Shown here: one piece after another, positions 1 to 50,725 of the stretch
Numbering within the stretch: position 1 is the stretch's first letter
Layout of the letters: every line of letters starts with the position of its first letter
Origin: a virus
DNA: 64,000 nucleotides
Virus record (IMG/VR): IMGVR_UViG_3300047494_000112
Coordinates: 96,001-160,000 of that record
Strand: one strand, 5' to 3'
Notes under the pieces: generated by a model
What the model was told of the DNA's origin: nothing
Database searches by the model: none
The model's input: the letters and a program-made list of their open reading frames with translations, nothing else
Program-made: the position numbers and the translations under genes

Positions 1-699
1 TCTAATCCTCCATCTGAAACAATCACAAAATGTGCTCAAGCTTATCAATTTTGTAGCAATAAATCTGCAAAGAAAAGACATTCTTGTCCGCATAAATTGA
101 AAGATTGTAAAGGTGACTTTGAATATGTAGAGCTAACTCTTTATTACAATGGTTTATCAGGTCACTGCGATTTACTTTTCAAAGTTGATGGTAAATATTA
201 TCTAGTAGATATAAAAACTACCTCAACTTTTTTATTCGACTCAACCAAACTGGCATTAGACAAAGGCTATTATCCAGCTAAAAAATATTTTCATCAAATT
301 GAATCATACGCAGTAATGCTTGAAAAACAATTTGACATTAAAATCGAGCAGTATGCCATTCTATACGTTTCACGAGACAGGACCAGCACAAAAAGAAAAG
401 GTCATATGCTGTTTGTTCGTAAATTAAATAATAGAATGAGAAGAGAGCGTTGGGAGTTATTAGATAAACAAACAGCCAATAACAAATTGGTTGAAAAATA
501 CGAAAAATCCCAAAGCAAAAAGTTGCTAACTAAGATATGGGAAAATCGTCCCTGTCAAAAGCCTTCTGACTACAAGAATGAAATGGGCCCCAAATTCTTT
601 GACAAGGTTTGTACGTTTCACAAGGACAAGACCTGCTATAGCGGCAAAATTATAAAGACAATAGAGAAAATGTATTCAAACAAAACTGCATCTATCTAA
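1..699 (+). CDS. PD-(D/E)XK (Cas4-like) exonuclease, 5' end outside window
   Basis: Frame 1 is open from base 1; HCDLLFKVDGKYYLVDIKT and QIESYA motifs plus Cys clusters fit the PD-(D/E)XK/Cas4-like fold. Confidence 0.6.
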   Translation, partial: SNPPSETITKCAQAYQFCSNKSAKKRHSCPHKLKDCKGDFEYVELTLYYNGLSGHCDLLFKVDGKYYLVDIKTTSTFLFDSTKLALDKGYYPAKKYFHQIESYAVMLEKQFDIKIEQYAILYVSRDRTSTKRKGHMLFVRKLNNRMRRERWELLDKQTANNKLVEKYEKSQSKKLLTKIWENRPCQKPSDYKNEMGPKFFDKVCTFHKDKTCYSGKIIKTIEKMYSNKTASI

Positions 700-709: not shown

Positions 710-1237
710 ATGATACTTTCAGCTCAATCTATTCGTCGCCTTTGTAAATATGAATATCCTAATAAACTACCTCAGGTGCCCTTGTTGGCACCTTATTCTG
801 AAAGTGCTGTTAATTCAGGTATGACCTTTGGCCTTTCATCAGCTGGATATGATATTCGTATTGACCAGGATGTTACCTTATATCCTATCACGCTTGGTAA
901 TCTTATGCTTAAAGCTATTGGTGTTAAACGCTCTTCTTTTGCTTTAGCAAGCTCAATTGAGAAATTTACTATTCCCAAGCATCTTATGCCGTTAGTAATG
1001 GATAAATCAACCTGGGCACGTAGAGGGTTAAGCGTTTTCAACACCTGTGCTGAACCAGGATGGACTGGCTGGCTAACCTTAGAATTAGCTAATAAAAGTG
1101 AGCACGTTTTGGAGATAAGAAAAGGAATGCCTATTGCTCAAATTGTATTCTTTGAGTTAGATCATCCTACTTGTCAACCCTATCAAGGAAAATATCAGCA
1201 TCAAGCTAGAGGTCCTCAACCGGCAATATTAGCATGA
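710..1237 (+). CDS. dcd: dCTP deaminase
   Basis: GLSSAGYDIRI, KSTWARRG, EPGWTGWLTLEL, PIAQIVF and YQGKYQHQ motifs. Confidence 0.9.
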   Translation: MILSAQSIRRLCKYEYPNKLPQVPLLAPYSESAVNSGMTFGLSSAGYDIRIDQDVTLYPITLGNLMLKAIGVKRSSFALASSIEKFTIPKHLMPLVMDKSTWARRGLSVFNTCAEPGWTGWLTLELANKSEHVLEIRKGMPIAQIVFFELDHPTCQPYQGKYQHQARGPQPAILA

Positions 1238-2601
1238 AGCCTACTTTAACAGTATTAGGCTTACAGAGTAGCTCAAAGCATTTCATTCCGCACCACAAAA
1301 TTGTACCTAGCTTATATCTAGGTAGATCTAGATCTATAGATCTAGAAACTAAGAGCGTAATGCACACCCAAGAAGCCGTCCAAAATATTGACTTTTGGAC
1401 ATTGGATTGTGATGCTTTTTACGTTGAGGACTCTTTAGGGTGGACTAAACCCCTGGATGTATCAGGAAATCATTTTGACTATTTCAGTGAGTTTCCAAAG
1501 ATATACAGAGTTGCTCATTCACTCTTTGAAGAAGATAATTTTCTAACAAACGGTTGGACCAAGAACAAACAACACGTTTTAGAGATATACAACAACTTAC
1601 TAATTGCCGATCTAATTTGGGTTAGTCCTGTTCTAGTTGAGATATTGCGTAGAACAATGCCTCAGGTATTGTCAAAGCAACAGATACAGCGAATAGAGAA
1701 AAAGTTTGTTGTTCTACCTCCCCCTGACTACTACAAGTTGGATACTATCTCATCTACTGTAGTTCAGCCTTCACGTAGCTTTAAAAAGGGTTTGGTCTTT
1801 CTTTGGAACCACCGCTTAATATCTCTCAAAAATCCAAAAATGTTCTTTGAGGCCATTGAGACATTTCACAAACAGCATAGCAAGGTTCCGATTGAGATTC
1901 GTATCTGTGCATCAGGCACTGAAAAAGAGGCTAGAGCATTTGTTCCTGAGTCTTTGCAAAAAACTGTAGTATATTCACCTTTTATATCTGATCCAAAAGA
2001 GTACTCAAAATTTATTGAAACAGCCAACATTACTATCGGTACCTCACGAATAGAGTCATTTGGTATCTCCGTATTTGATTGTATTCGTCAAGGCATGACC
2101 TATATTAACACTACACCTAACGAAGCCTTTTCAACAATTGCTGGATCACTAACTACAGTTAATCCTAAAGATGTGCCCGATATAATTTGGAAGTTATATT
2201 CTGATCCTAAAAAACGAGCAGACTGGGACAAAAAGAACATACAAGCATTAAACAGTTTACCTAATTTTGATAAAGCAAAGACAATTTTCAGTAACCGTGT
2301 TGATGAAATTGTACATGGTAAAATACAATCAGCAAAGGGCGACAGGTCAGAGAAGCTAAAAACAGCACTAAAAGTGTTAAGCAAAAAAGCTTTGAGCAAG
2401 CAAGACTTGTATCGTACCTTTGGTTGGGAACCAATGACTACATGCCGCAATGCGTTTTGGGGCGGCTATTATTTCTCTTTGAGAAAAAATGGCATTGATA
2501 CAAAGTTGATAAGTAATAAGCTATATTTTTACTCTGATAAGGCTCACCTAAAGAGTATAAATGAAACAAAGATACAAGCGCCGAAAGGATTATTCAAATG
2601 A
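1234..2601 (+). CDS. GT-B glycosyltransferase, GTDC1/DUF3524-like C-terminal domain
   Basis: LWNHRLISLKNPKMFF and TSRIESFGISVFDCIRQG (GT4-type E-x-F-G donor motif); start overlaps the dcd stop. Confidence 0.75.
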   Translation: MKPTLTVLGLQSSSKHFIPHHKIVPSLYLGRSRSIDLETKSVMHTQEAVQNIDFWTLDCDAFYVEDSLGWTKPLDVSGNHFDYFSEFPKIYRVAHSLFEEDNFLTNGWTKNKQHVLEIYNNLLIADLIWVSPVLVEILRRTMPQVLSKQQIQRIEKKFVVLPPPDYYKLDTISSTVVQPSRSFKKGLVFLWNHRLISLKNPKMFFEAIETFHKQHSKVPIEIRICASGTEKEARAFVPESLQKTVVYSPFISDPKEYSKFIETANITIGTSRIESFGISVFDCIRQGMTYINTTPNEAFSTIAGSLTTVNPKDVPDIIWKLYSDPKKRADWDKKNIQALNSLPNFDKAKTIFSNRVDEIVHGKIQSAKGDRSEKLKTALKVLSKKALSKQDLYRTFGWEPMTTCRNAFWGGYYFSLRKNGIDTKLISNKLYFYSDKAHLKSINETKIQAPKGLFK

Positions 2602-3158
2602 CTCATCCGTTCTTCTTGCTATATGATGGCGAGACACGCAAGAAAGCATTAGCTGAATTGCCTGCCATGATTAACAAGGCTAGAGTAATTTTAGATGGCC
2701 ACCCTTTTGTTAATGCTGGATTATACATAGGCCATAGCGGAGGAAAAGACTCTGTTGCAGTCACTTATCTAACTAGGTTAGTTTTTGGTATTTTGCCTAT
2801 TCTTCATTCGGCTAAACCTAAAGGTGAAAATGCCGTTCATCCTGAAGCACAAAAGCTTATATACGCAATGGGTGAACATCGTCCTGTGTTATTGCATCCT
2901 AGAGACGTTGTGCCTCCTCCAGAATATGCTACTCAGATTGATGGCACAAAAATGTGTGAGTTTGATAGGACTGATGGCAGGCATACAGATGTAATGATTG
3001 ATGGAGAGTTAAAAAGCCGAGCCGAAATGACTTGTTATGTTAAAAATGGTCTGTTTGGCAAGAATTTCATTTTTCCAATTTTTGATTGGCAAGATTATCA
3101 CGTTTGGGCTTTGATCTACAAAGAAAACTTGGCCTTTTCCGGAGAGTATTTAGAATGA
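2598..3158 (+). CDS. PAPS-reductase-family (PP-loop adenylyltransferase-like) protein
   Basis: HSGGKDS PP-loop, QIDGTKMCEFDR, and C-terminal PIFDWQDYHVWALI typical of the family; short (186 aa). Confidence 0.65.
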   Translation: MTHPFFLLYDGETRKKALAELPAMINKARVILDGHPFVNAGLYIGHSGGKDSVAVTYLTRLVFGILPILHSAKPKGENAVHPEAQKLIYAMGEHRPVLLHPRDVVPPPEYATQIDGTKMCEFDRTDGRHTDVMIDGELKSRAEMTCYVKNGLFGKNFIFPIFDWQDYHVWALIYKENLAFSGEYLE

Positions 3159-3820
3159 AAAACGTTTTAATTATTGCACCCCACATTGATGATGAAATGA
3201 TAGGTTGCTGGTCTGTATTTAATAATCCTGAAAATAACGTTAGCATTGTCTGGCTGTACGAATTAACTGAAGCTAGAATGCTAGAAGGAATGAGCTTGAT
3301 CGGTAAAGCTAAATCCACCTTAGATAAATTGGGTACAGGTGAAGCTGTAGCCTTTAAGCATATTGAAAAATATGTATATGATGAGATATATGTTCCTTCA
3401 AGAAAAGACTCTCATTTAGACCACAAGAAAGCAAACTCTTTATTCAGAAAATATGCTACCCATTTCTATTCAGTAGACATGGTTGATGGAAAATACTTAG
3501 GTGAGAAAGTTTCTGGCCAAAAATGGCGTGCATTGGAGGACTGTTATCCAAGTCAAAAGTCTTTATGGGACACAAACGCAAAATACTATCTGTTTGAGTC
3601 TATAACAATGTGTGATTACGATACCTATGAGACCTTTGAACACTGGGACTACTCTATCACAGTACCTGCTGAGTATTGTTCAGAGTGTCTTGAAGCGATA
3701 AAGTCTAAAAGACGAGGTGAATACAATTCACGAGAGATTATGGATAAACTGCTACAAATTTGCCCAACAGGTAAAGTTACGGTTCAATACAACGAGTTAA
3801 CTCTAGTGGCAGAAGGCTAG
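3155..3820 (+). CDS. PIG-L/LmbE-family deacetylase
   Basis: True start is the ATG at 3155 (ATGA overlap); VLIIAPHIDDEMIGC and DSHLDH metal motifs. Confidence 0.7.
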   Translation: MKNVLIIAPHIDDEMIGCWSVFNNPENNVSIVWLYELTEARMLEGMSLIGKAKSTLDKLGTGEAVAFKHIEKYVYDEIYVPSRKDSHLDHKKANSLFRKYATHFYSVDMVDGKYLGEKVSGQKWRALEDCYPSQKSLWDTNAKYYLFESITMCDYDTYETFEHWDYSITVPAEYCSECLEAIKSKRRGEYNSREIMDKLLQICPTGKVTVQYNELTLVAEG

Positions 3821-3822
3821 TC

Positions 3823-4254
3823 ATGAAATACGGAATTGAGGTCGAAGGTAGACTACGTGGTGTCAAAACTTTGTTTATGGATGCAAATGAACCTGTGCAA
3901 AAAGTACTTGATTTTTTGTATAGTGATGAAGGTAGAGGCATAGGTCATATTTATATCTGTGATCATGAGAACACTTTGAATTACAGGCAGGTCGCCTATC
4001 TTTTCAAGGGTTTTCACGTAACATTAGAAGTAAGCAAAGTAGAAGGCCCTGAGTTAAGATTAGGTACAGAAAATCTATCAATCATGTTTAGAATTGACCT
4101 TTGTCCGACAAAAGCAATTTACAAAAGTATCAGTTTACTCAGCAGTCTTTTTGACCAAGTTAAGATTGAAAAAGATAAAAAAGTGTATGTCTTTCCCTTT
4201 AGTAGTGTTATTACAACTTTACCTAATGAGTTTGAAGGTGATGTTGAGATATGA
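3823..4254 (+). CDS. Unknown protein, paralog of 7856..8353
   Basis: Tightly coupled ORF; shares GxEV..GxxTLF, HI(Y/F), G(F/Y)HVTL(E/D) and (V/I)KI(E/D)..FP with 7856..8353. Confidence 0.7.
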   Translation: MKYGIEVEGRLRGVKTLFMDANEPVQKVLDFLYSDEGRGIGHIYICDHENTLNYRQVAYLFKGFHVTLEVSKVEGPELRLGTENLSIMFRIDLCPTKAIYKSISLLSSLFDQVKIEKDKKVYVFPFSSVITTLPNEFEGDVEI

Positions 4255-5366
4255 CCAAAATTTATCTGGTACCTATAGAACCTTTGACTGAACGTTATTC
4301 CGAGTCTTGGTATAGAAATATTCCCGTTGCATTTGAAAATGCTGGTTTTGAGGTAGTTGTAATTGACGGTCATCCATTGTTGAATGACGATATCAAGGTG
4401 GGCACTTTTTTAGATATTTCTAGCACTTGTCACTACAAGGCTAGCCAACTACAAAAAATTGCCAAAATGTTTCATCATGGTGCGATTGATAAAGACTCTG
4501 TTTTCTTTTTCTCGGATATTGAATTTTGGGGAATTGAACAGGTCAGACTATTATCTGACATGAACAAGGTACCGGTGTTTTTAACAGGTTTCTTGCACGC
4601 AGGTTCCTATACTAGAGGGGATGCTTTTGAAATTGCAGCACCATATCAACAATTTACAGAGGTTGGCTGGGTAGCAGCATTAGACATGGTTTTTGTTGGC
4701 TCTGAATATCACAAGCAAGCTTTTTGGGCAAGGCGTCTGAAACCTTTAGGCTTTAATAACGAGTTAATACATAAAATCCATGTTACCAAAAATCCAATGT
4801 TTAAGAGTGATTATACCTTTAAAGGCCTCCCAAAAGAAAAAAGAATGCTGCTAACGAATAGGTTTGATCAAGAGAAAAATTGTGACCTAACAATAGCACT
4901 GTTTGCCAAACTGGCCAAAGAATATCCTGATTGGAAGTTTATTGTCACTACTTCACGAAAGACATTCCGTACAAACTATCCAGAAAAAGACATGGTAAAT
5001 ATCAATCAGTTGATTGAGGAGTCAGGGATAGAGCTAAAAATAGGACTAACAAAAGAGAAATACCATGAAGAGTTAGAGAAAGCAGCAATTGTTGTCTCTC
5101 ACTCACCAGAAGAAAATTATGGCATTTGTGTAGCAGAGAGCGTAATTTACGGCTGTATGCCATTGCTATCAAAATGCGCCTCACATCCATCGTTTGTTGA
5201 TAACGATAATAGGTTAATGTTTTACCTAAATGTACCTGGAGATGATTATGCACAAGCAATACGTTTGATGCACGCTTTTGAGGCTGGCGAGAAATCAACT
5301 CTTAAATTGGATTGGAATGGCATGTCTAACATTATTCAATACATTAACGTCCTGCAAAGGAAATAG
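4251..5366 (+). CDS. GT-B glycosyltransferase
   Basis: IEPLTERYSESW N-terminus; TNRFDQEKN and EENYGICVAESVIYGCMPL GT4-type motifs. Confidence 0.8.
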   Translation: MTKIYLVPIEPLTERYSESWYRNIPVAFENAGFEVVVIDGHPLLNDDIKVGTFLDISSTCHYKASQLQKIAKMFHHGAIDKDSVFFFSDIEFWGIEQVRLLSDMNKVPVFLTGFLHAGSYTRGDAFEIAAPYQQFTEVGWVAALDMVFVGSEYHKQAFWARRLKPLGFNNELIHKIHVTKNPMFKSDYTFKGLPKEKRMLLTNRFDQEKNCDLTIALFAKLAKEYPDWKFIVTTSRKTFRTNYPEKDMVNINQLIEESGIELKIGLTKEKYHEELEKAAIVVSHSPEENYGICVAESVIYGCMPLLSKCASHPSFVDNDNRLMFYLNVPGDDYAQAIRLMHAFEAGEKSTLKLDWNGMSNIIQYINVLQRK

Positions 5367-5368
5367 TA

Positions 5369-5734
5369 ATGAAAACTAGCATTTTTGTAAAGTTTCAGAA
5401 AGAGGGAATACACTGTTATCCAGCTGCGCCAGAAGGCGTGGAATTTCTCAAACATCCTCATCGACACATGTTTCACTTTGAGGTGGAAATTCAGGTTTTC
5501 CACCACGATAGAGATATTGAATTTATTCTTCTTAAACGTGAATTGGAAGCTTTGTATGATGAAAAAGTGCTAGAATTAAACCATCAATCTTGTGAAATGA
5601 TGGCTAGCTCTCTATATGATTATTTAATTGGCAAGTATTCAAAACGCGATATAAAAATTACGGTGTCAGAGGATGGTGAGAATGGCGCAATACTAACCGT
5701 GCCATACGTTGAGAATGAATTTGTAGCTAATTGA
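5369..5734 (+). CDS. QueD-like (6-pyruvoyl-tetrahydropterin synthase / T-fold) protein
   Basis: EGIHCYP..HPHRHMFHF..DRDIEFI..SCEMMA..VSEDGENG; adjacent to folE. Confidence 0.7.
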   Translation: MKTSIFVKFQKEGIHCYPAAPEGVEFLKHPHRHMFHFEVEIQVFHHDRDIEFILLKRELEALYDEKVLELNHQSCEMMASSLYDYLIGKYSKRDIKITVSEDGENGAILTVPYVENEFVAN

Positions 5735-5738
5735 GGAT

Positions 5739-6308
5739 ATGCTTGTGAATAAAGAAGATATACTACCGGAAGTGACAGCATTAATTGCCAAAATGTATCC
5801 AAGTTATTTGGAAGATCCAAATTTGGCAGAGACGCCTGCTAGAATTGCAAAAATGTATTGTGAGGAATTGTTTGCTGGTTCATTTACTGAACCTCCTAAG
5901 CTAACAGTTTTTCCAAATACAAAAAAGTACAATCAGCTTATAATTGTTCCTGATATAAATTTCTCTAGTGTCTGTTCTCACCATTGGCTTTCATTCATGG
6001 GATTTGCAACAATTGGAATTTTATTGAATGAAGATTCTAGTTTTTTGGGACTATCTAAATATGCTCGTTTAGTAGATTGGTTTGCTAGACGTCCTCAGGT
6101 ACAAGAAAATCTAACTGAGGAAATTGCTGATTATATTAATGAGACCTTAAAGCCTGCTGCTTTAGGTGTGTACATCTCTGCAAATCATTTATGTGCAGTT
6201 GTTAGAGGTATAAAACAGCCAACCTCTACAATGATTACTACTGCTCTGCGTGGTGAAATGTTAACCAGCCCGTATCTTAAATCTGAATTTTTGGCTAGAT
6301 GTAAATGA
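5739..6308 (+). CDS. folE: GTP cyclohydrolase I
   Basis: ETPARIAKMY, SVCSHH, GLSKYAR, RRPQVQE and HLCAVVRG motifs. Confidence 0.95.
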   Translation: MLVNKEDILPEVTALIAKMYPSYLEDPNLAETPARIAKMYCEELFAGSFTEPPKLTVFPNTKKYNQLIIVPDINFSSVCSHHWLSFMGFATIGILLNEDSSFLGLSKYARLVDWFARRPQVQENLTEEIADYINETLKPAALGVYISANHLCAVVRGIKQPTSTMITTALRGEMLTSPYLKSEFLARCK

Positions 6309-6309
6309 T

Positions 6310-7848
6310 ATGATTAAAGATTTAGTTCAATATATTCCAGCAGCACTCTTTAATCCTGCTCATTCAGGAACCGGAGTTTATATAAAGTATCACGCTCTAA
6401 GAAATGAACCACCTAAACTCTTAAAGTACAAAACTGAATACACTCACTTGGATACTCCCGATAGAGAGTTGTTACTTGTCAACGACAACAATCGACTCGG
6501 AAATACCAGACCTTTGGATGAAGGATTTGATGAATTTGTTTCTTTTTCTCCTATGCATCTGAGTTCAAAAGATTCAGGCATGAAGTGGGGAATGATGAAT
6601 TACCTTCAAAATCTCAATCCCAAGTATAATCACCATTTCATGGATGCTTATAAAGATATTCCTGATCGTGTGAAGATTATTTCTGACTCTGGTGGGTTTC
6701 AACTTTCTAGAGGCAGCGTTTCTTTTATTAATCCTGAAAAATTGGCTATATGGTACAGTACCACCTGTGACGTAGGCATGACTTTGGATGTTCCTTTAGG
6801 TCGAGAAGGTAGCAGCAAATACTTGAAAGAGTCTGGAAAGATACAAAAGAAAAACAATGAAAAAATGCTGGAAACTTTTTCAAAGCTAAATAGTCCTACA
6901 AAGCTCATGAACGTTTTGCATGGATTAAATGAATCAGAGTATGAGCTGTATCACAAAATTGTGTATGAGCCGACTGTGGATAAACTTGCAATTGGTGGTG
7001 TCTATCACTCTTCATTAGTTACATCCACCAAGCTGATCTATAATTTAATGTTTGAGTCTGATATAGGCAAGCACTACAATCACGTCCATATCTTAGGCGT
7101 ATTTAATAACAAAATATTGCCAATCTATTATTGGATTTTCAAATTAGCAAATGAGAAGCGCAAGAAACCAATTCTACTAACTTCTGATTCTTCTACTGCA
7201 ATCCAACAAGCAGTAGCCAAAACATATTTTATGGCTCACAATTACGACGAGCCTTATCAGTTTCAAAAATTAGGTACAACGTTTCAGACAGGACATCTTC
7301 CATCGAGAGTAATTTCATCACCTTTTAGAACATTAAACTGTTGCTGTCCTGTTTGTGCAGCCCTGAAATATACTGACCTATTTACTTTCTGCACAGGTCA
7401 AGCCATAAACTCAGCATTAACGTACCATAACAATTGGCAGTTTAGTCGCTATACCAATTTCATGAATGAAATGCTGCAAAAGCTTGATTTTGAACAGTAT
7501 CGAGATTTGGTTGCAAGACAAATTGGAAAGAGAGCTTCTAGAGACACTTTGGATGCTCTTGATTTTGTTAATCATGCACATAAACATGGTTTGAAGTCAG
7601 CACATAGTAGGTTTCATCACTATTTTAGAAATCTGTTTTCTTTTTCAAAAGAATTAGCTGAAGAAAAAACCATTAAGAAAAAAAGAGACGAATTTTTGGT
7701 GACTGTGTTTGACAAGTATAACAAATATCATAAAACAGGAAAGGCTCCTGAAACCGTTAAAATTATGCTTGACAAAAAAGTAGGTAATCTGGCTCAAAAG
7801 TCAACTTCCTCTAATAAAAAAGCGAAAAAAATCTCAATTAAAAAGTAA
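6310..7848 (+). CDS. tRNA-guanine transglycosylase / DpdA-like 7-deazaguanine insertase
   Basis: DSGGFQL, MTLDVP, HVHILG, TSDSST (candidate catalytic Asp) and CCCPVC...YHN zinc site of the TGT fold; next to folE/queD-like. Confidence 0.8.
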   Translation: MIKDLVQYIPAALFNPAHSGTGVYIKYHALRNEPPKLLKYKTEYTHLDTPDRELLLVNDNNRLGNTRPLDEGFDEFVSFSPMHLSSKDSGMKWGMMNYLQNLNPKYNHHFMDAYKDIPDRVKIISDSGGFQLSRGSVSFINPEKLAIWYSTTCDVGMTLDVPLGREGSSKYLKESGKIQKKNNEKMLETFSKLNSPTKLMNVLHGLNESEYELYHKIVYEPTVDKLAIGGVYHSSLVTSTKLIYNLMFESDIGKHYNHVHILGVFNNKILPIYYWIFKLANEKRKKPILLTSDSSTAIQQAVAKTYFMAHNYDEPYQFQKLGTTFQTGHLPSRVISSPFRTLNCCCPVCAALKYTDLFTFCTGQAINSALTYHNNWQFSRYTNFMNEMLQKLDFEQYRDLVARQIGKRASRDTLDALDFVNHAHKHGLKSAHSRFHHYFRNLFSFSKELAEEKTIKKKRDEFLVTVFDKYNKYHKTGKAPETVKIMLDKKVGNLAQKSTSSNKKAKKISIKK

Positions 7849-7855
7849 GGAATTT

Positions 7856-8353
7856 GTGATGAAAAAAATGTATGTAGGTGAAGAAGTAGGTAACACTCCA
7901 ATGTATGGAACACAAACTTTGTTTGTAGTAGGCTTGCAAGATTATGTTAGTGTTATTTCTGCTGCCGAAGCAAATGAATGTGATCATATCTTTTTAGGAG
8001 CAAATTTTAGCTTTAATCCAGAGGATGATCAAGATGAATTTAATGATTGGGAAGAGTTGATCTTTAATCTGTTGGATAGTCCTTTTGGCTACCATGTAAC
8101 TTTGGATATAGAAATTCCCAAATATAGCGTTTTTATCAAAGATATGGTCAAGAAATTTCCTGACAATTTTTATCCTTTGCTGTCCGTTAGATTGCCTAAT
8201 ATACTAGAATACGGTCCAAATGCGACTATAAAAATTGATGACATTGGATTCAACAAGACTAATCCAGGTATCTGGTGTTTTCCTTTGGATGATAGCTTAA
8301 AGGATTGGGGGTTTTTCAACACTTGGGATGAAATGATAAATAACACGGTTTAA
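7856..8353 (+). CDS. Unknown protein, paralog of 3823..4254
   Basis: VGEEVGNTPMYGTQTLFVVG, DHIFLGAN, GYHVTLD, IKIDD..GIWCFP. Confidence 0.7.
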   Translation: MMKKMYVGEEVGNTPMYGTQTLFVVGLQDYVSVISAAEANECDHIFLGANFSFNPEDDQDEFNDWEELIFNLLDSPFGYHVTLDIEIPKYSVFIKDMVKKFPDNFYPLLSVRLPNILEYGPNATIKIDDIGFNKTNPGIWCFPLDDSLKDWGFFNTWDEMINNTV

Positions 8354-8423: not shown

Positions 8424-8969
8424 ATGGTTGATAACGTTACCGCTCACATTCTTAATGTTTTAGCAGCAAAAAAGAAAACTTCACAAACAATTGTTGACCC
8501 TAGAAGAGTAGCAATTGCTTTACCCAATTCTAGAGTGCCTAAAGCTGATTCAGTTGTGAGCTTCAAATACCTATTAATGAATAGCATTAAGTATCAGCCA
8601 GATGAAGCTAACTCTGAACATGTTACGCTCCGTTCTTTGGCTAAAAAGAATTTCAAGAATGGGTCCATTGGAGCTGTAGGTTCAACTTTGACGGACTTGC
8701 CTCAATATCGTCAAAAGCACAAATGGGATCAGACTCTTCGCTGCACACCAGCAAGCTATCGTGGTAAAATAATTGACTGCCCTTCAATTGTATTCAACTG
8801 TTCATGCCCTCGGTTCACGTTTGTCTGGAATTGGGTTCTCTGGGCCAAGTCAGCATCAGTTTTAAATGCTACAAACGAGCCGCCTGACATTACTAATCCT
8901 CGCAAGCTAATTGGGGGATGCAAGCACGCGATTATTTTTCTTCAAGCAATCAAAAAACGCGGTATGTAA
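8424..8969 (+). CDS. SWIM-type zinc-finger protein
   Basis: CSCPRF...GCKH (CxC...CxH) pattern. Confidence 0.5.
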   Translation: MVDNVTAHILNVLAAKKKTSQTIVDPRRVAIALPNSRVPKADSVVSFKYLLMNSIKYQPDEANSEHVTLRSLAKKNFKNGSIGAVGSTLTDLPQYRQKHKWDQTLRCTPASYRGKIIDCPSIVFNCSCPRFTFVWNWVLWAKSASVLNATNEPPDITNPRKLIGGCKHAIIFLQAIKKRGM

Positions 8970-9042: not shown

Positions 9043-10905
9043 ATGCGCTACTCTGAAGCAATGTCATCTGCTACCTCAAATTCACTCAAATTTGGTCCGC
9101 AGCGAAAAACACCAGATACAATAGACATTGATTTAGAACGCAATAATTTAATCACTGGACATGGCATGGAGACATTCAACACGTCCTATCTCTTACCAGG
9201 TGAAAATCCACAAACTCTATATGCTAGAGTTTGTGCTTGGATGGGGAGCAATTCAGAACATGCTCAGCGTTTGTATGACTATTTAAGTAAGCATTGGTTC
9301 TCACCAGCTACACCAATTCTATCTAATGCTGGTACTAAACGTGGCCAGACCATTTCATGCTATCTAACTGAAGTTCAAGATAGTATGCGCTCAATTATTG
9401 ACAAGTGGCAGGAACAAGCTTGGTTAGCTTCTCAGGGTGGAGGTTTAGGTGTCTCTTGGAGACAAGTTCGTTCTCGTTCTGAAAAAGTTGGACAAGTAGG
9501 TTCAACTAGCGGTGTTGTCCCTTTTCTAAAGGTTTGTGAGTCTTTGACGCTTGCAATTTCACAAGGTTCTTTACGCCGTGGAAATGCTGCAATGTATCTG
9601 CCTATTTGGCATCCAGAGATAATTGAATTTCTTAATATTCGTAATCCTGTAGGAGGGGATCCCAAACGTAAAACGTTAGAACTGCATCACGGTATTACAA
9701 TTGATGATGAGTTCATGAAGGCTGTCGAGACAAATTCAACATATAATCTACGTTCACCAAAAGATGGATCAATTATAGATATAGTCAAGGCTCGCGAGGT
9801 TTGGATTCGTATTCTAACTACTAGAGTTGAAACTGGCGAACCATACATTATTTTTATAGATAATGTTAACAAAGCTGTTCCTGAGCATCATCAAGCTTTA
9901 GGCTTGTTTCCAACAAGCTCGAATTTATGCAGCGAGATTTTACTTCCTATAGGACCAGATTATAACAAAAAAGATCGAACCGCTGTTTGTTGTCTGTCTT
10001 CTCTAAATTTAGAGTATTGGGACGAGTGGAAAGACAACGAGCAATTTATTCCGGATATTATGGAGTTTCTTGACAACATATTAATCGAGTATTGCGATAC
10101 TGCTATTCCGGAAATGCAACATGCAGTTTATTCTGCAAGACAAGAGCGTAGTGTAGGTTTAGGAGTAATGGGCTTTCATTCTTTATTGCAAAAGAAAAAT
10201 TTGCCTTGGGAATCAGCTCTCTCTAAATCTCTAAACATGAAAGTATTCAAACATCTAAAGTTGGAAACTGATAGATCTTCAAAGCTATTAGCTGAGCTTC
10301 GTGGTCCATGTCCTGATGCTGTTGAATACACCTGCAGAACAGGTAAAGAATATAACGAACGCTTTTCTTACAAAATGGCAATTGCTCCTACAGCAAGCAT
10401 TTCAATTTTAACTGGTCAGTCCTCGCCAGGAATTGAACCTAATGCTGCAAACATTTTTAAATTTGTTATCAAAGCAGGAACACTAATTGCAAAGAACAAA
10501 TATTTATCTGAGTTGTTGGACAAATACGGTATGAATACTTCTGAAGTTTGGGAAGATATATCTCAAAACAAGGGTAGTGTCCGTCATCTGGAATTTCTCA
10601 CCCCATACGAAAAAGATATTTTTAAGACGGCTACAGAAATTGACCAACGTTGGCTAGTTGAGTTTGCCGCTGATAGAACTCCATTTGTAGATCAAGGACA
10701 AAGCTTAAATTTGTTTCTACCCGCCGATATCAACAAAAAAGATTTGCATAACATTCACATGATGGCTTGGAAAAAAGGAGTAAAAAGCTTATATTATGTA
10801 AGAAGTTCCAGTGTTCAACAAGCTCAAACATTGGATAGAGTGTTAAAAGCAAGCAAAGCAGAAACTCCTTCGTTCAATTCGGACGAATGCTTGGCTTGTC
10901 AGTAG
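9043..10905 (+). CDS. nrdA: Ribonucleotide reductase class Ia alpha subunit (no ATP cone)
   Basis: SPATPILSN, ISCY, SNLCSEI, APTASIS, KSLYYVRS and C-terminal CLACQ. Confidence 0.97.
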   Translation: MRYSEAMSSATSNSLKFGPQRKTPDTIDIDLERNNLITGHGMETFNTSYLLPGENPQTLYARVCAWMGSNSEHAQRLYDYLSKHWFSPATPILSNAGTKRGQTISCYLTEVQDSMRSIIDKWQEQAWLASQGGGLGVSWRQVRSRSEKVGQVGSTSGVVPFLKVCESLTLAISQGSLRRGNAAMYLPIWHPEIIEFLNIRNPVGGDPKRKTLELHHGITIDDEFMKAVETNSTYNLRSPKDGSIIDIVKAREVWIRILTTRVETGEPYIIFIDNVNKAVPEHHQALGLFPTSSNLCSEILLPIGPDYNKKDRTAVCCLSSLNLEYWDEWKDNEQFIPDIMEFLDNILIEYCDTAIPEMQHAVYSARQERSVGLGVMGFHSLLQKKNLPWESALSKSLNMKVFKHLKLETDRSSKLLAELRGPCPDAVEYTCRTGKEYNERFSYKMAIAPTASISILTGQSSPGIEPNAANIFKFVIKAGTLIAKNKYLSELLDKYGMNTSEVWEDISQNKGSVRHLEFLTPYEKDIFKTATEIDQRWLVEFAADRTPFVDQGQSLNLFLPADINKKDLHNIHMMAWKKGVKSLYYVRSSSVQQAQTLDRVLKASKAETPSFNSDECLACQ

Positions 10906-12466: not shown

Positions 12467-14413
12467 ATGACCGGTGAAATTGATATCTTTGAAGAGATTA
12501 AACTCTCAAACAGCTTTCATGACGCAGAAAAAATGTCAATGCGTGATTATCTAGATCTATGCAAAGTAGATAGCTCTGCTTATGCTTCAGCTCCAGAGCG
12601 CATGTTAAAAGCAATTGGAAAACCCATTAAGCTGGACACGTCAAAGGACGAACGTCTTTCCCGAATTTTCTATAACCGTACTATCAAAGTCTATCCAGCT
12701 TTTGCTGACTTCTATGGTATTGAAGAGGCAATTGAATCTATTGTAAACTTTTTTACTCATGCTGCACAAGGTTTGGAAGAGCGTAAACAAATTTTGTACC
12801 TACTTGGCCCAGTTGGCTCCTCCAAGAGCTCTTTGGCTGAGCGTCTAAAACACTTGATGGAAAATCAGCCAATCTATGTCTTGGCAACCAAAGATCATGG
12901 CATGTCTCCTATTTTTGAATCGCCTTTAAGCTTGTTCATTAAAGACGAACAGATTGAAAAAATTGAAAAGAACTACAACATTCCTCGTTCCTATATGCCA
13001 GGAATAATGTCGCCTTGGGCTGTCAAGCGTTTGACAGAGTTTAAAGGAGATATTTCTCAGTTTGTTGTTCACAAAATTTACCCAAGCAAGCTGCAACAAA
13101 TCTGTGTTGCAAAAATTGAGCCAGGTGATGACAACAATATGGATATTGGCTCGATGGTCGGCAAGGTTGACCTTCGTATGCTTGAGAAATTTCCGCAAAA
13201 TGACACCGATGCTTATAGCTATTCAGGTTCCATGAATAGAGCCACTCAAGGCGTAATGGAATTTGTTGAAATGTTTAAAGCCCCGATAAAAATGCTGCAT
13301 CCGTTGCTAACTGCAACGCAAGAACGTAACTATATGGGTACTGAGAATATTGGTGCTATACCGTTTGACGGCATCATTTTGGCTCACTCAAACGAGTCTG
13401 AATGGGCAACTTTTAAGCATAACAAAAATAACGAAGCTTTTATTGATCGTGTTTACACAATCAAAGTGCCTTATTGCTTGCGAGTATCTGAAGAAGTCAA
13501 AATTTACGAAAAGCTTATCCGACATTCCAATCTACAAAACAACCCTCTAGCTCCGCATACATTGGAAATGTTGGCGCGCATGTCGGTTCTATCTCGCTTG
13601 CATGAGCATGAGAACAGCAACTATTTCAGTAAGATGCGTGTGTATGATGGTGAGTTCATTAAAGAGACTGATCCTCACGCTAAAACAGTTCAAGAGTATC
13701 GTGATGCAGCAGGTCAAGATGAAGGCATGACCGGCATCTCTACTCGGTTTGCGTTCAAAGTTCTTTCGGCCACATATAACTACGACTCTGAAGAAATCTC
13801 TGCTGACCCTGTTCATTTGATGCTTCAAATTGAGAAAGCAATCAAGAAAGAGCAGTATCACAAGGATTTGGAAAACAAATATATTTCTTTCTTGCAAGAA
13901 ACATTGGCGGCAAAGTATCTTCAATTTATTGGTGATGAAATTCAGAAAGCTTATCTGGAGTCATACAAAGACTATGGCCAAAATATGTTTGAACGCTATA
14001 TTGATTTAGCTGACAACTGGCTTGAAGATAAAGATTACAAAGATCCTGATACAGGTCAGCTAATGAATCGAGAGCTGATCGATAAAGAACTATCAAAAAT
14101 GGAAAAACCTGCAGGTATTGGTAATCCTAAAGATTTCCGAAATGAGGTTGTCAAGTTTGCTTTGCGAGCTGCAAAGAATACTGGCAAGACTCCTGCTTGG
14201 GATTCTTATGAAAAGATAAGAGACGTAATTGAAAAGCGCATGTTTTCAAACGTTGAAGATTTGCTTCCTATTATCAGCTTTGGCACAAAGAAAGACGCTG
14301 AGACTGACAAAAAACATAATGACTTTTTGGCTCGTATGAAAGAGCGTGGCTATACGGAACGTCAGGTTCGTCGTACTGTTGAATGGTACGTGCGAGCTAA
14401 AGGATCCATGTGA
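12467..14413 (+). CDS. prkA: PrkA/YeaG AAA+ ATPase-serine kinase
   Basis: LLGPVGSSKSS, EFVEMFKAPIKMLHPLLTATQE, GMTGISTRFAFK, EWYVR C-terminus. Confidence 0.95.
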   Translation: MTGEIDIFEEIKLSNSFHDAEKMSMRDYLDLCKVDSSAYASAPERMLKAIGKPIKLDTSKDERLSRIFYNRTIKVYPAFADFYGIEEAIESIVNFFTHAAQGLEERKQILYLLGPVGSSKSSLAERLKHLMENQPIYVLATKDHGMSPIFESPLSLFIKDEQIEKIEKNYNIPRSYMPGIMSPWAVKRLTEFKGDISQFVVHKIYPSKLQQICVAKIEPGDDNNMDIGSMVGKVDLRMLEKFPQNDTDAYSYSGSMNRATQGVMEFVEMFKAPIKMLHPLLTATQERNYMGTENIGAIPFDGIILAHSNESEWATFKHNKNNEAFIDRVYTIKVPYCLRVSEEVKIYEKLIRHSNLQNNPLAPHTLEMLARMSVLSRLHEHENSNYFSKMRVYDGEFIKETDPHAKTVQEYRDAAGQDEGMTGISTRFAFKVLSATYNYDSEEISADPVHLMLQIEKAIKKEQYHKDLENKYISFLQETLAAKYLQFIGDEIQKAYLESYKDYGQNMFERYIDLADNWLEDKDYKDPDTGQLMNRELIDKELSKMEKPAGIGNPKDFRNEVVKFALRAAKNTGKTPAWDSYEKIRDVIEKRMFSNVEDLLPIISFGTKKDAETDKKHNDFLARMKERGYTERQVRRTVEWYVRAKGSM

Positions 14414-14432
14414 GATAAACTGGTCTTATTTT

Positions 14433-14459
14433 GGTGGTGGGTTAGATATTCCCACCACC
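14433..14459 (+). terminator. Stem-loop after prkA
   Basis: GGTGGTGGG-9 nt-CCCACCACC inverted repeat. Confidence 0.55.
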
Positions 14460-14473
14460 TAAAGAGAGTAACT

Positions 14474-14842
14474 TTGAAATTTGAAGTCAGCTTATGCTAT
14501 TTTGAAAAAGATGGTTTAACAGTTAAACAGATAATAGAGTTCAATGATTGTGAAGACAAAAATGTTATTGCTCAATTAACTTGGATATTAAACCATGTCT
14601 CTCAGACTGGCATAAAATATGCTGCAAAAGGTGTTACGGTTTACAATTTTGATGGTTCTTTAGGGCTTCAAATTTTTACTTGGAGTTTAGATACAAAGTG
14701 CGTTCCTGATGATTATGATTTTTCAAAAGCTCACAAGTTAAAATATTGGTTGTTTGTAAACGATAGTCTATCAAGACTAGATACTTCCGTGTTAATAGAG
14801 TTTTCAAAAGACTTTTATCTTCACAAATTACGATATAGGTAA
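14474..14842 (+). CDS. Hypothetical protein
   Basis: AT-rich ORF between prkA and yeaH. Confidence 0.5.
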   Translation: MKFEVSLCYFEKDGLTVKQIIEFNDCEDKNVIAQLTWILNHVSQTGIKYAAKGVTVYNFDGSLGLQIFTWSLDTKCVPDDYDFSKAHKLKYWLFVNDSLSRLDTSVLIEFSKDFYLHKLRYR

Positions 14843-14845
14843 AAA

Positions 14846-15187
14846 ATGTTCCACGTTACTGTCTTAATAAAGTCTATTCTCAAATATAATTTTCCTAAAG
14901 TCGATAAAGACTTAAATTTAGAAGAGTTGGAAAAAGCTTTTAACAGCATTTTGAAGGCTTTTTCTGATGCTTTTCCAAAGCAGATAAGCGTGACAGGGTC
15001 AGGTTATTCCAATAGACCTTTCGATGTCTACGAATCGAAAGGTCCAATAACTTTACAATACTTTACAATGCTTGAAAAAGCAATTTTCTATGTTTGGGAA
15101 GATAAAGAAAAAACAAAGCTAATTCTGGAAGTTATAGCTGATAAAGACGGTAATTTACGAGGCCTCAATAAATTACGTTTTGGATAG
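14846..15187 (+). CDS. Hypothetical protein
   Basis: AT-rich ORF between prkA and yeaH. Confidence 0.5.
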   Translation: MFHVTVLIKSILKYNFPKVDKDLNLEELEKAFNSILKAFSDAFPKQISVTGSGYSNRPFDVYESKGPITLQYFTMLEKAIFYVWEDKEKTKLILEVIADKDGNLRGLNKLRFG

Positions 15188-15368
15188 ATTGAGATAAAAA
15201 TAGAATCTTAGTTTAGGTAAGCTTTTTCCCTTTCACTTGCCTATTCAAGGATTCTATAGAGGGCAAACAAACTAGTAATTGCGGATCAGCCGGCCGCGGT
15301 GAAGTTTTGTTTGCCCTCTGCTATTTGGTAAATTATAGTGTAACTTTCTAACAAGGGATTGAGTTATC

Positions 15369-16619: not shown

Positions 16620-16644
16620 TCTAATATTGTGAAAGAGAAATGGC

Positions 16645-18805: not shown

Positions 18806-19798
18806 ATGAAATTAGGAGTACTGACTTTGAGTTTGACTGAAACTGTACCTGGTCGCCCTTATAGACCATTTCAATACCCTTGGTGCTTTGACTACTTTGA
18901 GCAGCAAAAGAAAATTGATTGGATGCCTTCTGAAGTCGCCATGGGCGATGATGTTAAAGACTATCATGATAGTCTAACCCCCGGCGAAAGAAATCTCTTA
19001 ACGCAAATTTTTCGTTTCTTTGTTACTGCTGATCAGGAAGTAGGTAACAATTATCACGAGCGTTATCTTCCAATCTTTAAGCCTACAGAAGTGCAAATGA
19101 TGTTGCTGCAATTTGCAGCAACTGAATCGGTTCATGTCTGGGCTTATTCTCATCTAATTGATACTATCGGTCTCCCGGAGACAGAATATTTAGCATTTCT
19201 TCAGTACAAGGAAATGACTGAAAAATACGAATATTTTTCAAAATTTTCAATTGACAATCCTCATGAGGTTGCAAAGACTTTAGCTGCTTTTGGAGCCTTT
19301 ACTGAAGGCTTGCAGCTATTTGCATCCTTTGCAATTTTACTAAATTTTCCTCGATACAATTTAATGAAAGGAATGGGCCAAATAATTTCCTGGTCCGTCC
19401 GCGACGAATCGCTCCATTGCGATGGTGTAATAAGATTGTATCATACTTATTTGGATGAGAATCCAAGTATAAACAAGGCTGAATTACAAAAAGACGTTGA
19501 ACAAATTTGTCGTGATATTGTCAATCACGAAGATGCTTTTATTGATTTAGCTTTTGGTGTTAGCGAAGATATTCGTGGCATGACAGCAAAAGATATTAAA
19601 GATTATATTCGTTATGTTGCCAATATGCGCTTGCTTCAATTGAAAATGGAACCCATTTACAATCAAATGGAAAATCCTATTCCTTGGTTAGCAAAGCAAT
19701 TAAACAGTGTTGAGCATGCAAACTTTTTTGACGCCAGAGTAACTACTTATAGTAGATCCGCAACGACCGGTAGCTGGGAAGAAGTGTTCGATGACTAA
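18806..19798 (+). CDS. nrdB: Ribonucleotide reductase class Ia beta subunit
   Basis: PFQYPW, ESVHVWAY (Fe ligands and Tyr radical), EGLQLFASF, RDESLH, NFF. Confidence 0.96.
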   Translation: MKLGVLTLSLTETVPGRPYRPFQYPWCFDYFEQQKKIDWMPSEVAMGDDVKDYHDSLTPGERNLLTQIFRFFVTADQEVGNNYHERYLPIFKPTEVQMMLLQFAATESVHVWAYSHLIDTIGLPETEYLAFLQYKEMTEKYEYFSKFSIDNPHEVAKTLAAFGAFTEGLQLFASFAILLNFPRYNLMKGMGQIISWSVRDESLHCDGVIRLYHTYLDENPSINKAELQKDVEQICRDIVNHEDAFIDLAFGVSEDIRGMTAKDIKDYIRYVANMRLLQLKMEPIYNQMENPIPWLAKQLNSVEHANFFDARVTTYSRSATTGSWEEVFDD

Positions 19799-25682: not shown

Positions 25683-25886
25683 ATGAAGAAAATTCCTATT
25701 AAAGCTGCAAAAGAAATTGCAGAAAAATATGGATATGATCAGGTAATAGTGTATGCTAGAAAAACAGGAGATATAAAGCCTCATGGCGAGCATATTACCA
25801 CCTATGGTAAAAATAAAGATCACTGCAATGCAGCTGCTCAGATTGGCAATTTTTTAAAGTATAAGATAATAGGATGGACAAAATGA
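25683..25886 (+). CDS. Hypothetical protein
   Basis: GGAG SD, ATG at 25683, ATGA-coupled to queD. Confidence 0.65.
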   Translation: MKKIPIKAAKEIAEKYGYDQVIVYARKTGDIKPHGEHITTYGKNKDHCNAAAQIGNFLKYKIIGWTK

Positions 25887-26470
25887 CTACTCATCTAATC
25901 GAACAAGTCTTCACAAGAAGAATAGCCATTGCTCATAGACTGATTTCAGATCCTTTGTCACCTTGCTATAGCATTCACGGACACAATGTCTATATCAAAT
26001 GGCACGCAGCCTATCATGCTACAATGTCTTTTACGTTGGATTTTGAAGCTAATATGCTAGCACCTTTTGCAAAGGTAAAAGGAACCATTCATAAATGGAT
26101 GGATAATTATTTAGACCATTCTTTATTCATATCGAATAAAGATAGTCACTTGCCTTTGTATTTAGAAGACAAGATGAAGATGGCAGTATTTCACGGCGAT
26201 CCTACAATGGAAATGGTGGCGGCTTCTCTGTATGCCAAAATCAATGCCTTTTTGTCTGATAGCTTTGAGTTGAAACTCTACTGTCCAATGGTTGAGATAG
26301 AAGAAACTCCAACAAACACAGTAATTGTACGCAGCTCTTTCAATTTACCTAAGAGTTGTCAGCATTGGTGGAATCGAGCTGACATGACAACAAACGATAA
26401 TCTTGCGGTCGCAATTGCAATCAATAATGCAGAGCAAGTTGTAGCAGATGCAGCAGCCCACAGACCATAA
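25883..26470 (+). CDS. queD: 6-carboxy-tetrahydropterin synthase (canonical QueD)
   Basis: IAHRL..CYSIHGHN..LDHS..DPTMEMVA..VEIEETPTN. Confidence 0.8.
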   Translation: MTTHLIEQVFTRRIAIAHRLISDPLSPCYSIHGHNVYIKWHAAYHATMSFTLDFEANMLAPFAKVKGTIHKWMDNYLDHSLFISNKDSHLPLYLEDKMKMAVFHGDPTMEMVAASLYAKINAFLSDSFELKLYCPMVEIEETPTNTVIVRSSFNLPKSCQHWWNRADMTTNDNLAVAIAINNAEQVVADAAAHRP

Positions 26471-50341: not shown

Positions 50342-50360
50342 TACGCTAAAATTAGGCATG

Positions 50361-50393
50361 AGGCCCATTGGCGAAAGCTAGTGGGCCTTTTTT
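50361..50393 (+). terminator. Rho-independent terminator
   Basis: AGGCCCATTGGC-GAAA-GCTAGTGGGCCT plus T run. Confidence 0.85.
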
Positions 50394-50677: not shown

Positions 50678-50725
50678 AGGTGAACGTTTCACTCAAAACA
50701 ACTGATATGGAATGGAGATACTGAC

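Follow-up and report, generated by a model that had tools for sequence, protein, structure and literature searches.

A putative sugar-handling gene module embedded in the 7-deazaguanine operon of a large uncultured phage and of many other phages

The closest described system is that of Cellulophaga phage phiST, whose DNA holds 2'-deoxy-7-deazaguanosine (dDG) and which encodes FolE, QueD, QueE, DpdL and the transglycosylase DpdA3, but no QueC (Cui, Hutinet et al., NAR 2023, PMC10516641). DpdL is a QueD paralogue carrying LxxxHRHxF in place of the QueD motif CxxxHGH, and its role as 7-carboxy-7-deazaguanine (CDG) decarboxylase has been proposed but not shown. In the same work, dDG could not be reconstituted in E. 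coli from DpdL and DpdA of phage ACP17 alone, and further enzymes were suggested to be needed. A glycosylated 7-deazaguanine is known outside DNA: huimycin of Kutzneria albida, a free secondary metabolite made through QueC and O-methylation, carries GlcNAc on N2 of the base, which is attributed to HuiG, a glycosyltransferase (GT) annotated with a GT4-type Pfam domain (PMC7439116; 10.64898/2026.04.15.718813). Its pathway shares CDG/preQ0 core genes and a GT with the locus described here, but involves no transglycosylase, deacetylase or PP-loop partner. In mycothiol, bacillithiol and 2-deoxystreptamine aminoglycoside biosynthesis (MshA/MshB, BshA/BshB, BtrM/BtrD), a retaining GT4 adds GlcNAc, an LmbE-type enzyme removes the acetyl group and an ATP-dependent enzyme then acylates the free amine. 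PP-loop, ATP-dependent activation of the CDG carboxylate is an established chemistry of QueC and QueC-like amide synthetases such as RoyL of roseomycin (10.64898/2026.04.15.718813). Finally, T-even phages protect their DNA against nucleases with glucosyl-hydroxymethylcytosine, where the base is a pyrimidine with a hydroxymethyl handle and the alpha- and beta-glucosyltransferases belong to other families.

We examined a window of 64,000 nucleotides, corresponding to positions 96,001 to 160,000 of the 187-kb viral record IMGVR_UViG_3300047494_000112. The initial annotation described ten tightly packed genes at 710-8353 as a candidate pathway for a glycosylated 7-deazaguanine or pterin-derived DNA base, and this gene arrangement was confirmed. 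All ten ORFs are present on the + strand, the junctions at 1234, 2598, 3155 and 4251 are ATGA overlaps and the other gaps are 1-7 bp. Promoter and terminator scans did not exceed shuffled controls. The ten genes and two further relevant ones are as follows (window coordinates).

710..1237 (+), dCTP deaminase (DCD/dUTPase fold), translationally coupled to the next gene but probably a nucleotide-pool enzyme
1234..2601 (+), GT4-type glycosyltransferase GTa (455 aa), the second sugar transferase
2598..3158 (+), small PP-loop ATP pyrophosphatase (SGGKDS) of the PAPS-reductase/CysD/FAD-synthase family
3155..3820 (+), divergent PIG-L/LmbE-type (PIG-L-like) metal-dependent deacetylase
3823..4254 (+), unknown A, paralogue of unknown B and probably a QueE derivative without the iron-sulfur cluster
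4251..5366 (+), GT4-type glycosyltransferase GTb, the conserved partner of the DpdA-like gene
5369..5734 (+), DpdL, QueD paralogue and proposed CDG decarboxylase
5739..6308 (+), GTP cyclohydrolase I (FolE)
6310..7848 (+), DpdA-like guanine transglycosylase (predicted TGT fold) with a basic helical C-terminal extension
7859..8353 (+), unknown B, member of a large unannotated family, possibly a QueE derivative without the cluster
8424..8969 (+), conserved downstream partner of this TGT-like clade, with a CxC...CxH (SWIM-like) motif
25874..26470 (+), true QueD (6-carboxytetrahydropterin synthase) with the CxxxHGH motif

Most of the initial family assignments held, with some corrections. The gene at 5369-5734, initially called QueD-like, had no PTPS hit and is DpdL: LKHPHRHMF at residues 27-35 matches the published signature, tblastn gave 36.8% identity to phiST DpdL (CGPG_00067, E 6e-11) and 50% to ACP17 DpdL (E 5e-25), and PHROG 17812 matched at E 2.9e-30. 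The PIG-L gene starts at 3155 instead of 3086 and unknown B most likely starts at the ATG at 7859. The statement that QueE is lacking was true of the window only. The record encodes QueD 18 kb downstream of the operon (PF01242 E 2.6e-15, above the cut-off; TIGR03367 E 1.6e-10; CYSIHGH visible in the sequence) and, about 8 kb beyond the window end (genome 167937-168782), a QueE-like radical SAM enzyme with an intact CxxxCxxC motif (CNLKCSFC), whose five best NCBIfam hits are all QueE models. QueC was not found in the 187-kb record. FolE is clear (PF01227 E 5.3e-47; NCBIfam FolE models E 3e-47).

This gene set, although split here over three places in the genome, corresponds to the published QueC-less dDG genotype, and the absence of QueC together with DpdL is not in itself a sign of a non-standard base, as had been inferred initially. 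The pterin alternative received no support. Contrary to this locus, phiST has no GT, PIG-L, PP-loop or unknown A/B genes. Its DpdA3 (259 aa) is also not detected: an HMM built from 90 members of the present 400-540 aa family found no ORF in the phiST locus at E 1e-4, and tblastn of the window protein found no Cellulophaga or Campylobacter phage, so that sequence-detectable kinship with the phiST/CP220-type DpdA3 subfamily was not observed.

The DpdA-like protein was weak as a single sequence but clear as a family profile and as a predicted fold. Its AF2 model (pLDDT 85) gave Z 24.1 to ArcTGT 1iq8 (312 residues aligned, rmsd 3.8), 23.9 to human QTRT1 and about 23 to bacterial and human TGT, and Foldseek matched DpdA 7ui4 at 3.5e-9. 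The family profile hit ArcTGT at 4.6e-11 and DpdA at 1e-4, with aligned motifs. In 36 relatives, D126 (SDSGGFQ), D160 and D293 (TSDSS) are invariant and the zinc-site residues C344, C346, C349 and H373 are conserved in at least 90%. FolE and DpdL abut the gene, and association with deazaguanine synthesis genes was observed in most related loci. Yet, the closest TGT relatives, GR7B and Lauda, have no deazaguanine genes nearby.

Since the protein scores equally well against tRNA enzymes, a role in phage or host tRNA modification was considered. The initial annotation took the lack of a GUN anticodon among the five tRNAs of the window as weakly favouring DNA; this is true of the window but fails at genome level, where tRNA-Asn(GTT) occurs at genome 86444-86520. 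However, the protein lacks the PUA and C-terminal tRNA-binding domains of ArcTGT and has a basic helical tail instead, all phages known to carry deazaguanines in DNA encode such DpdA proteins, and no QueA, QueG or QueF was seen among the genes scanned. Moreover, phage PA5oct, which carries a DpdA-like gene, a GT and DpdL, is reported to resist G-containing restriction sites and to be hit by sensors of modified G (PMC12191111), although this is only indirect evidence for exchange in DNA. A tRNA target thus appears very unlikely.

The module of GT4, PP-loop, PIG-L-like, unknown A and second GT4 genes is what distinguishes this locus. Both GTs score above the Pfam cut-off for Glycos_transf_1 (GTa 29.7 and GTb 32.5 bits against 26.4), and they are the only two GTs of this family in the genome, both inside the operon. 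In GTb, the putative donor-site residues R204, K209 and E296, corresponding to the Arg/Lys diphosphate binders and the Glu of the EX7E motif, are conserved in 55, 54 and 58 of 59 relatives, respectively, and the EX7E motif can be read. Its top solved relatives are HexNAc transferases: SdgB at 9e-10, then PglH, GtfA, MshA and BshA. GTb is 52% identical to the protein of Burkholderia phage BCSR5 and 46% to that of Xanthomonas phage X1. A second GT occurred in the position of GTa in locus L098 (L numbers denote loci of our censuses), and differently placed in L107, L014, L055 and L070.

The PP-loop protein scored 23.0 bits against a PF01507 cut-off of 22.5, and its family profile hit CysD 1zun at E 1e-6, FAD synthase and NAD synthetase. 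It is not QueC: no PF06508 match was found in the protein or in the genome and its 186 residues contain no C-terminal Cys cluster, only the SGGKDS PP-loop being shared. The PIG-L-like protein remained below the Pfam cut-off (PF02585, 21.3 bits against 28.2), but 21 of 33 relatives matched at E below 0.01 (best 7.7e-7), and P9, H10, D12, D13, E14, D85, H87 and H90 of the PHxDDE and DxHxxH motifs are invariant in all 33. Its profile matched only LmbE/PIG-L structures, weakly, with BshB among them and the motifs aligned to TT1542; the family has 358 cluster representatives. Single-sequence PDB searches of the TGT-like, PP-loop and PIG-L-like proteins gave chance hits or nothing.

Unknown A and unknown B are paralogues (hhalign of unknown A against the unknown B family, 94.8%, E 5e-8). 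Unknown A follows PIG-L in 15 viral loci as well as in BCSR5 and X1, and keeps an E-G-x3-G-x4-F motif like the QueE N-terminus. Unknown B has at least 284 relatives, none with a Pfam domain, and its model (pLDDT 88.9) is an alpha/beta partial barrel without convincing fold match: Foldseek found nothing at E 0.001 or better, the best VIA score (Z 7.3, to RsbS) lies within the noise range, and three QueE structures scored Z 5.5-6.1 over about 125 residues. Neither protein has the CxxxCxxC motif, direct hhalign against the QueE family was negative (below 1%) and the ESM Atlas gave no usable lead. Their QueE ancestry thus rests only on the short motif and on these Z scores near 6, through the QueE-like domain of a PP-loop fusion at 87.6%. 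Unknown B lies next to the DpdA-like gene in ACP17 and L083-L087 and recurs in 8 other loci altogether, but is absent from the 80%-identical relatives L088 and L089.

The sugar-handling genes are linked to the deazaguanine pathway by more than adjacency in this one genome, the linkage resting on conserved gene order in unrelated phages, reciprocal censuses and gene fusions. The order PP-loop, PIG-L, unknown A, GT, DpdA-like is conserved in X1 (where the full run is FolE-PP-PIGL-unkA-GT-DpdA-DpdL-QueE), in BCSR5 and in about 15 viral contigs, and the module also recurs in a deazaguanine operon of Xanthomonas phage BUDD. Among 90 TGT-seeded loci, a GT occurred within 10 kb of the DpdA-like gene in 65 (within 300 bp in 47, overlapping in 28) and in 35 of the 47 loci with full flanks. 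Reciprocally, 80 PIG-L-seeded loci contained GT in 79, QueE in 54, FolE in 42 and QueD in 34, although 60 showed no TGT-like gene within 10 kb. As a control, the 69 weak PIG-L relatives in cellular genomes have no deazaguanine gene nearby. Natural fusions were also found: PP-loop::PIG-L (P0230 and P0240), PIG-L::DpdL (L164, L176, L157 and L167) and PP-loop::QueE-like.

These linkages argue against a coincidental neighbourhood in which the GTs would act on hydroxymethyl-pyrimidines in DNA, virion proteins or the host envelope. Such a reading could invoke the dCTP deaminase heading the operon (Pfam DCD E 2.6e-19; PHROG 1663 E 3.8e-49; TIGR02274 92.5 bits against a cut-off of 92.8) and the fact that GT4 enzymes commonly act on proteins and glycolipids. 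Yet, no ThyA- or ThyX-type hydroxymethylase was found in the 187-kb record, for which reason a hydroxymethyl-pyrimidine route was rejected, and the dCTP deaminase, without homologue in any of the other loci, is not conserved with the module and was rejected as part of it. We consider this reading improbable.

The interpretation of the initial annotation was thus partly supported: a deazaguanine DNA base is likely, while a sugar on it is plausible on gene content alone. The ORFs, their conserved order, the censuses and the fusions were observed here, whereas the enzymatic steps, including CDG decarboxylation, exchange of guanine in DNA and the transfer of a sugar to the base, are inferred from homology. 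In our preferred view, held at about even odds, FolE, QueD and QueE would make CDG, which DpdL would convert to 7-deazaguanine or otherwise handle, and the DpdA-like enzyme would exchange guanine in phage DNA for this base. GTb would transfer a HexNAc, probably from UDP-GlcNAc, onto the deazaguanine, either as free base or in DNA, the PIG-L-like enzyme would remove the acetyl group to leave a free amine, and the PP-loop enzyme together with unknown A would carry out an ATP-dependent activation, for instance of a carboxylate. GTa may add a second sugar. The sequence of reactions would resemble that of the mycothiol-type pathways, with a different acceptor and a small PAPS-reductase-type PP-loop protein instead of a Cys ligase. 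The predicted product is a sugar- or amino-sugar-bearing 7-deazaguanine that would shield virion DNA from host nucleases. Some arguments speak against it: phiST makes plain dDG without any GT, 7-deazaguanine offers no obvious hydroxyl acceptor, and an N2-glycosylated free base would probably not fit a TGT pocket.

Alternatively, the DNA base may be plain dDG as in phiST, with the GT, PIG-L and PP-loop enzymes acting on a transient intermediate or carrier, e.g. a glycosylated CDG processed before insertion, so that no sugar would remain in the DNA. The failed reconstitution with ACP17 genes is in line with this, and ACP17 has the GT and an unknown B homologue between DpdL and DpdA. However, phiST achieves dDG without GT, spending UDP-sugar and ATP on a scaffold that is then removed is costly, and the optional, modular presence of PIG-L, PP-loop and a second GT looks like decoration rather than core synthesis; this alternative is unlikely, though the least so among the rivals. 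The module might also make a free glycosylated 7-deazapurine like huimycin or dapiramicin during infection, DpdA inserting an unglycosylated base separately or acting independently. Many PIG-L plus GT loci with FolE, QueD and QueE but no TGT-like gene within 10 kb would fit this view. It is nevertheless quite unlikely, since GT and DpdA-like genes overlap or abut in 47 loci, PIG-L::DpdL fusions tie the module to the DpdL/DpdA genotype, and no transporter or regulator typical of metabolite clusters lies in the operon.

More tentatively, and somewhat less likely than not, virion DNA of this phage and of cultured carriers such as X1, BUDD and BCSR5 may contain a 7-deazaguanine bearing a de-N-acetylated hexosamine, perhaps extended by a second sugar or an ATP-dependent acylation, made by a virus-specific set comprising a GT4, a PIG-L-like deacetylase, a PP-loop enzyme and cluster-less QueE-derived base binders. 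Literature searches found no description of a glycosylated deazaguanine in DNA, and the sugar-decorated DNA bases known to us are all pyrimidines; this would be the first sugar-bearing purine in natural DNA and thus a new chemical class. It could explain why DpdL plus DpdA failed to reconstitute in E. coli, would define new targets and escape routes in the contest between phages and nucleases or glycosylases, and the enzymes would be tools for site-specific sugar labelling of DNA. Cultured phages carry each version of the module: X1, BUDD and BCSR5 the full set, ACP17, PA5oct and Phosso GT plus DpdL, and phiST no GT.

Downstream of the ten genes, homologues of the product of 8424..8969, which had no Pfam hit and carries its SWIM-like motif at residues 126-168, directly follow the TGT-like gene in GR7B, Lauda, L008, L009, L011-L013, L044, L088 and L089.

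The window belongs to an IMG/VR virus record of 187,324 bp that was estimated to be 81% complete, of which it represents bases 96001-160000. Its gene content is that of a jumbo-type myovirus, with PrkA/DUF444/SpoVR, ribonucleotide reductase, a sigma factor, a UvsX-like recombinase and topoisomerase II. The gene cluster described in the initial annotation was recovered as such: all ten ORFs exist, four of their junctions are ATGA overlaps and the remaining gaps measure 1-7 bp. Promoter-like and terminator-like sites inside the run did not exceed shuffled controls. The features considered first are the following.

Window 710-8353, + strand: run of ten tightly packed ORFs.
Window 5369-5734, + strand, within this run: DpdL, initially called QueD-like.
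Window 25874-26470: genuine QueD.
Genome 167937-168782, about 8 kb past the window end: QueE-like radical SAM protein.
Window 1-699, immediately upstream of the operon: PD-(D/E)XK nuclease-like ORF (weak Pfam hit, E 5e-4).

Searches against Pfam, PHROG and NCBIfam confirmed six of the initial gene assignments, i.e. a dCTP deaminase, two GT4 glycosyltransferases (GTs), a PAPS-reductase-type PP-loop protein with an SGGKDS motif, FolE and a TGT-like protein, the latter with a weak match. The PIG-L assignment remained below the Pfam cut-off (21 bits against 28). The gene initially called QueD-like displayed no PTPS hit. Instead, it carries LKHPHRHMF, which is exactly the LxxxHRHxF signature used by Cui, Hutinet et al. 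to define DpdL, a QueD paralogue that they proposed as the CDG decarboxylase behind 2'-deoxy-7-deazaguanosine (dDG) in Cellulophaga phage phiST (PMC10516641). Likewise, tblastn found the phiST DpdL at 37% identity and the DpdL of Acidovorax phage ACP17 at 50%. The dCTP deaminase was unique to this genome among all loci examined and is therefore probably involved in pool metabolism.

The rest of the pathway was found elsewhere in the genome. The QueD displays the CYSIHGH motif, and the five best NCBIfam hits of the radical SAM protein, which has a QGEG...CNLKCSFC N-terminus, are all QueE models (E 2.5e-24). No QueC was found in the record, nor any ThyA-type or ThyX-type enzyme that could feed a hydroxymethyl-pyrimidine route. 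The core genotype is therefore the published QueC-less dDG type, and the lack of QueE put forward in the initial annotation is an artefact of looking only at the window. The interpretation that accompanied that annotation, a sugar-decorated product of a deazaguanine pathway without QueE and QueC, was thus supported only in part. Its argument from tRNAs, none of those in the window having a GUN anticodon, does not extend to the genome, where three further tRNAs occur outside the window (genome 86338-88618): Ser(TGA), Asn(GTT) and Thr(TGT), of which Asn(GTT) has a queuosine-type anticodon.

A profile built from 36 relatives of the TGT-like protein hit ArcTGT (4.6e-11) and Salmonella DpdA (1e-4). 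In that alignment, SDSGGFQ, D160 and D293 were invariant and the CxCxxC...H zinc site was conserved in at least 90% of the sequences. The AlphaFold model (pLDDT 85) matched TGT enzymes at Z 23-24 over about 312 residues and DpdA 7ui4 at a Foldseek E of 3.5e-9. Beyond the predicted barrel lies a helical, lysine-rich tail instead of the PUA domains of ArcTGT. The family is distinct from the 259-aa DpdA3 of phiST, which was not detected by our family HMM. In a quick tree, the window protein was placed in a clade with Vibrio phage GR7B and the Pseudomonas putida Lauda-type phages, which have no deazaguanine genes nearby, but the same clade also holds Burkholderia phage BCSR5, Xanthomonas phage X1 and ACP17, which do. 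A 181-aa protein with a CxC...CxH (SWIM-like) motif (window 8424-8969) directly follows the TGT-like gene here, as well as in GR7B, Lauda and the related loci L008, L009, L011-L013, L044, L088 and L089, and may be a DNA-binding partner of this DpdA-like clade.

The sugar module proved to be linked to the pathway, as first indicated by conserved gene order. Phage X1 displays one contiguous run composed of FolE, PP-loop, PIG-L-like, unknown A, GT, DpdA-like, DpdL and QueE, whereas BCSR5 has DpdL, PP-loop, PIG-L-like, unknown A, GT and DpdA-like, followed by QueE and FolE. Viral contig L098 repeats even the extra upstream GT of this window. Of the named phages, X1, BUDD and BCSR5 carry the full module, ACP17, PA5oct and Phosso have the GT plus DpdL, and phiST has no GT. 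Of 90 loci seeded on the TGT-like protein, 65 hold a GT of this family, which lies within 300 bp of the TGT-like gene in 47 and overlaps it in 28, and DpdL is present in 48. Among the 47 loci with at least 3 kb on both sides, 35 have the GT. In the reverse census, seeded on the PIG-L-like protein, GT was found in 79 of 80 loci, QueE in 54, FolE in 42, QueD in 34, the TGT-like gene in 20, PP-loop in 19, DpdL in 17 and unknown A in 15. As a control, 185,579 cellular genomes were searched: only weak, generic PIG-L relatives turned up and none of the 69 lies near any deazaguanine gene. Within the lineage of the window, unknown B is missing from the 80%-identical relatives L088 and L089, while locus L090 shows that GT-DpdL-FolE-TGT is kept.

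Three kinds of natural fusion were encountered in other viral contigs. Proteins P0230 and P0240 are PP-loop::PIG-L-like. Contigs L164 (9995-10741), L176, L157 and L167 encode PIG-L-like::DpdL proteins, with both motif sets visible in the L164 sequence. Finally, L148 (10802-11857), L150 and L167 encode a PP-loop fused to a domain that opens with the QueE substrate-loop motif but has no cluster cysteines.

The GT family keeps the Arg/Lys pair and the EX7E glutamate in 54-58 of 59 members, from which catalytic activity is predicted, and its nearest solved relatives are HexNAc-transferring GT4 enzymes (SdgB, PglH, GtfA, MshA and BshA). The PIG-L-like family comprises 358 cluster representatives. 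PHxDDE and DxHxxH are invariant, 21 of 33 members hit PF02585, and the profile matched only LmbE-type structures, although weakly. The PP-loop family grouped with CysD, FAD synthase and NAD synthetase, not with QueC.

Unknown A and unknown B are paralogues (hhalign 94.8%, E 5e-8). Unknown B belongs to a family of at least 284 unannotated proteins and is confidently predicted (pLDDT 88.9) to fold into an alpha/beta partial barrel with no clear structural relative, three QueE structures appearing at Z 5.5-6.1 over about 125 residues. The fused domain of L148 bridges the two, with 87.6% to QueE and 54% to unknown B. Both unknowns are read as probable cluster-less QueE derivatives that keep a base-binding loop, yet this is a lead rather than a result since direct profile comparison with QueE was negative. 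A 199-aa QueE-like paralogue in contig L142 (11114-11713), directly upstream of the GT and beside a normal QueE, keeps the EGE...G.PT.F motif but has no cluster cysteines, and may be an intermediate form between QueE and the unknown A/B family.

As regards mechanism, the gene identities, conserved orders, censuses and fusions are results of the present analysis, whereas the base-synthesis and base-exchange steps are assigned by homology only, and the activities of the module enzymes, as well as the presence of a sugar on the DNA base, are inferred. The DpdL step is proposed in the literature but was not reconstituted. A GT4 paired with an LmbE-type enzyme is the classical way to install glucosamine, by addition of GlcNAc followed by de-acetylation, and is used in mycothiol, bacillithiol and aminoglycoside biosynthesis. 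The set itself is modular: the GT is almost universal, PIG-L is frequent, and PP-loop plus unknown A is occasional. This argues that the GT acts on something every system has, namely the deazaguanine itself. Huimycin shows that GlcNAc is attached in nature to N2 of a 7-deazaguanine base, a step attributed to HuiG, the glycosyltransferase of the cluster, and QueC-like enzymes are known to form amides from adenylated CDG. DNA is the likely destination, since phage PA5oct has DpdA-like-GT-DpdL, its DNA resists enzymes with G in their sites and it is restricted by sensors of modified G (PMC12191111).

Yet several observations go against a sugar on DNA, a reading for which no carrier has so far provided a mass spectrum. 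phiST reaches dDG without any GT, and 7-deazaguanine has no hydroxyl. One main alternative is a transient sugar-bearing intermediate that ends as plain dDG. Moreover, many PIG-L plus GT loci show no TGT-like gene within 10 kb, and the other main alternative is a free huimycin-like metabolite.

No paper was found that describes a GT, PIG-L or PP-loop partner of DpdA or DpdL, or a glycosylated deazaguanine in DNA. This study adds the reciprocal census with its cellular control, the three kinds of fusion, the paralogy of unknown A and B, and the links to huimycin and PA5oct.

Elsewhere in the window, the PrkA kinase/AAA protein, DUF444 and SpoVR triad (12467-18192), a bacterial stress or sporulation-type set, sits between the large and small ribonucleotide reductase subunits (9043-10905 and 18806-19798). 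Outside the window, a ribose-phosphate pyrophosphokinase-like gene lies next to a NAMPT/NAPRTase-like gene (locus L006, 2221-4595; genome 162221-164598), resembling the phage NAD-reconstitution counter-defence pair. At window 50000-54000, G+C rises from about 0.37 to 0.46-0.47 and stays above 0.41 to the window end, and a few minus-strand ORFs appear at 50693-51417.
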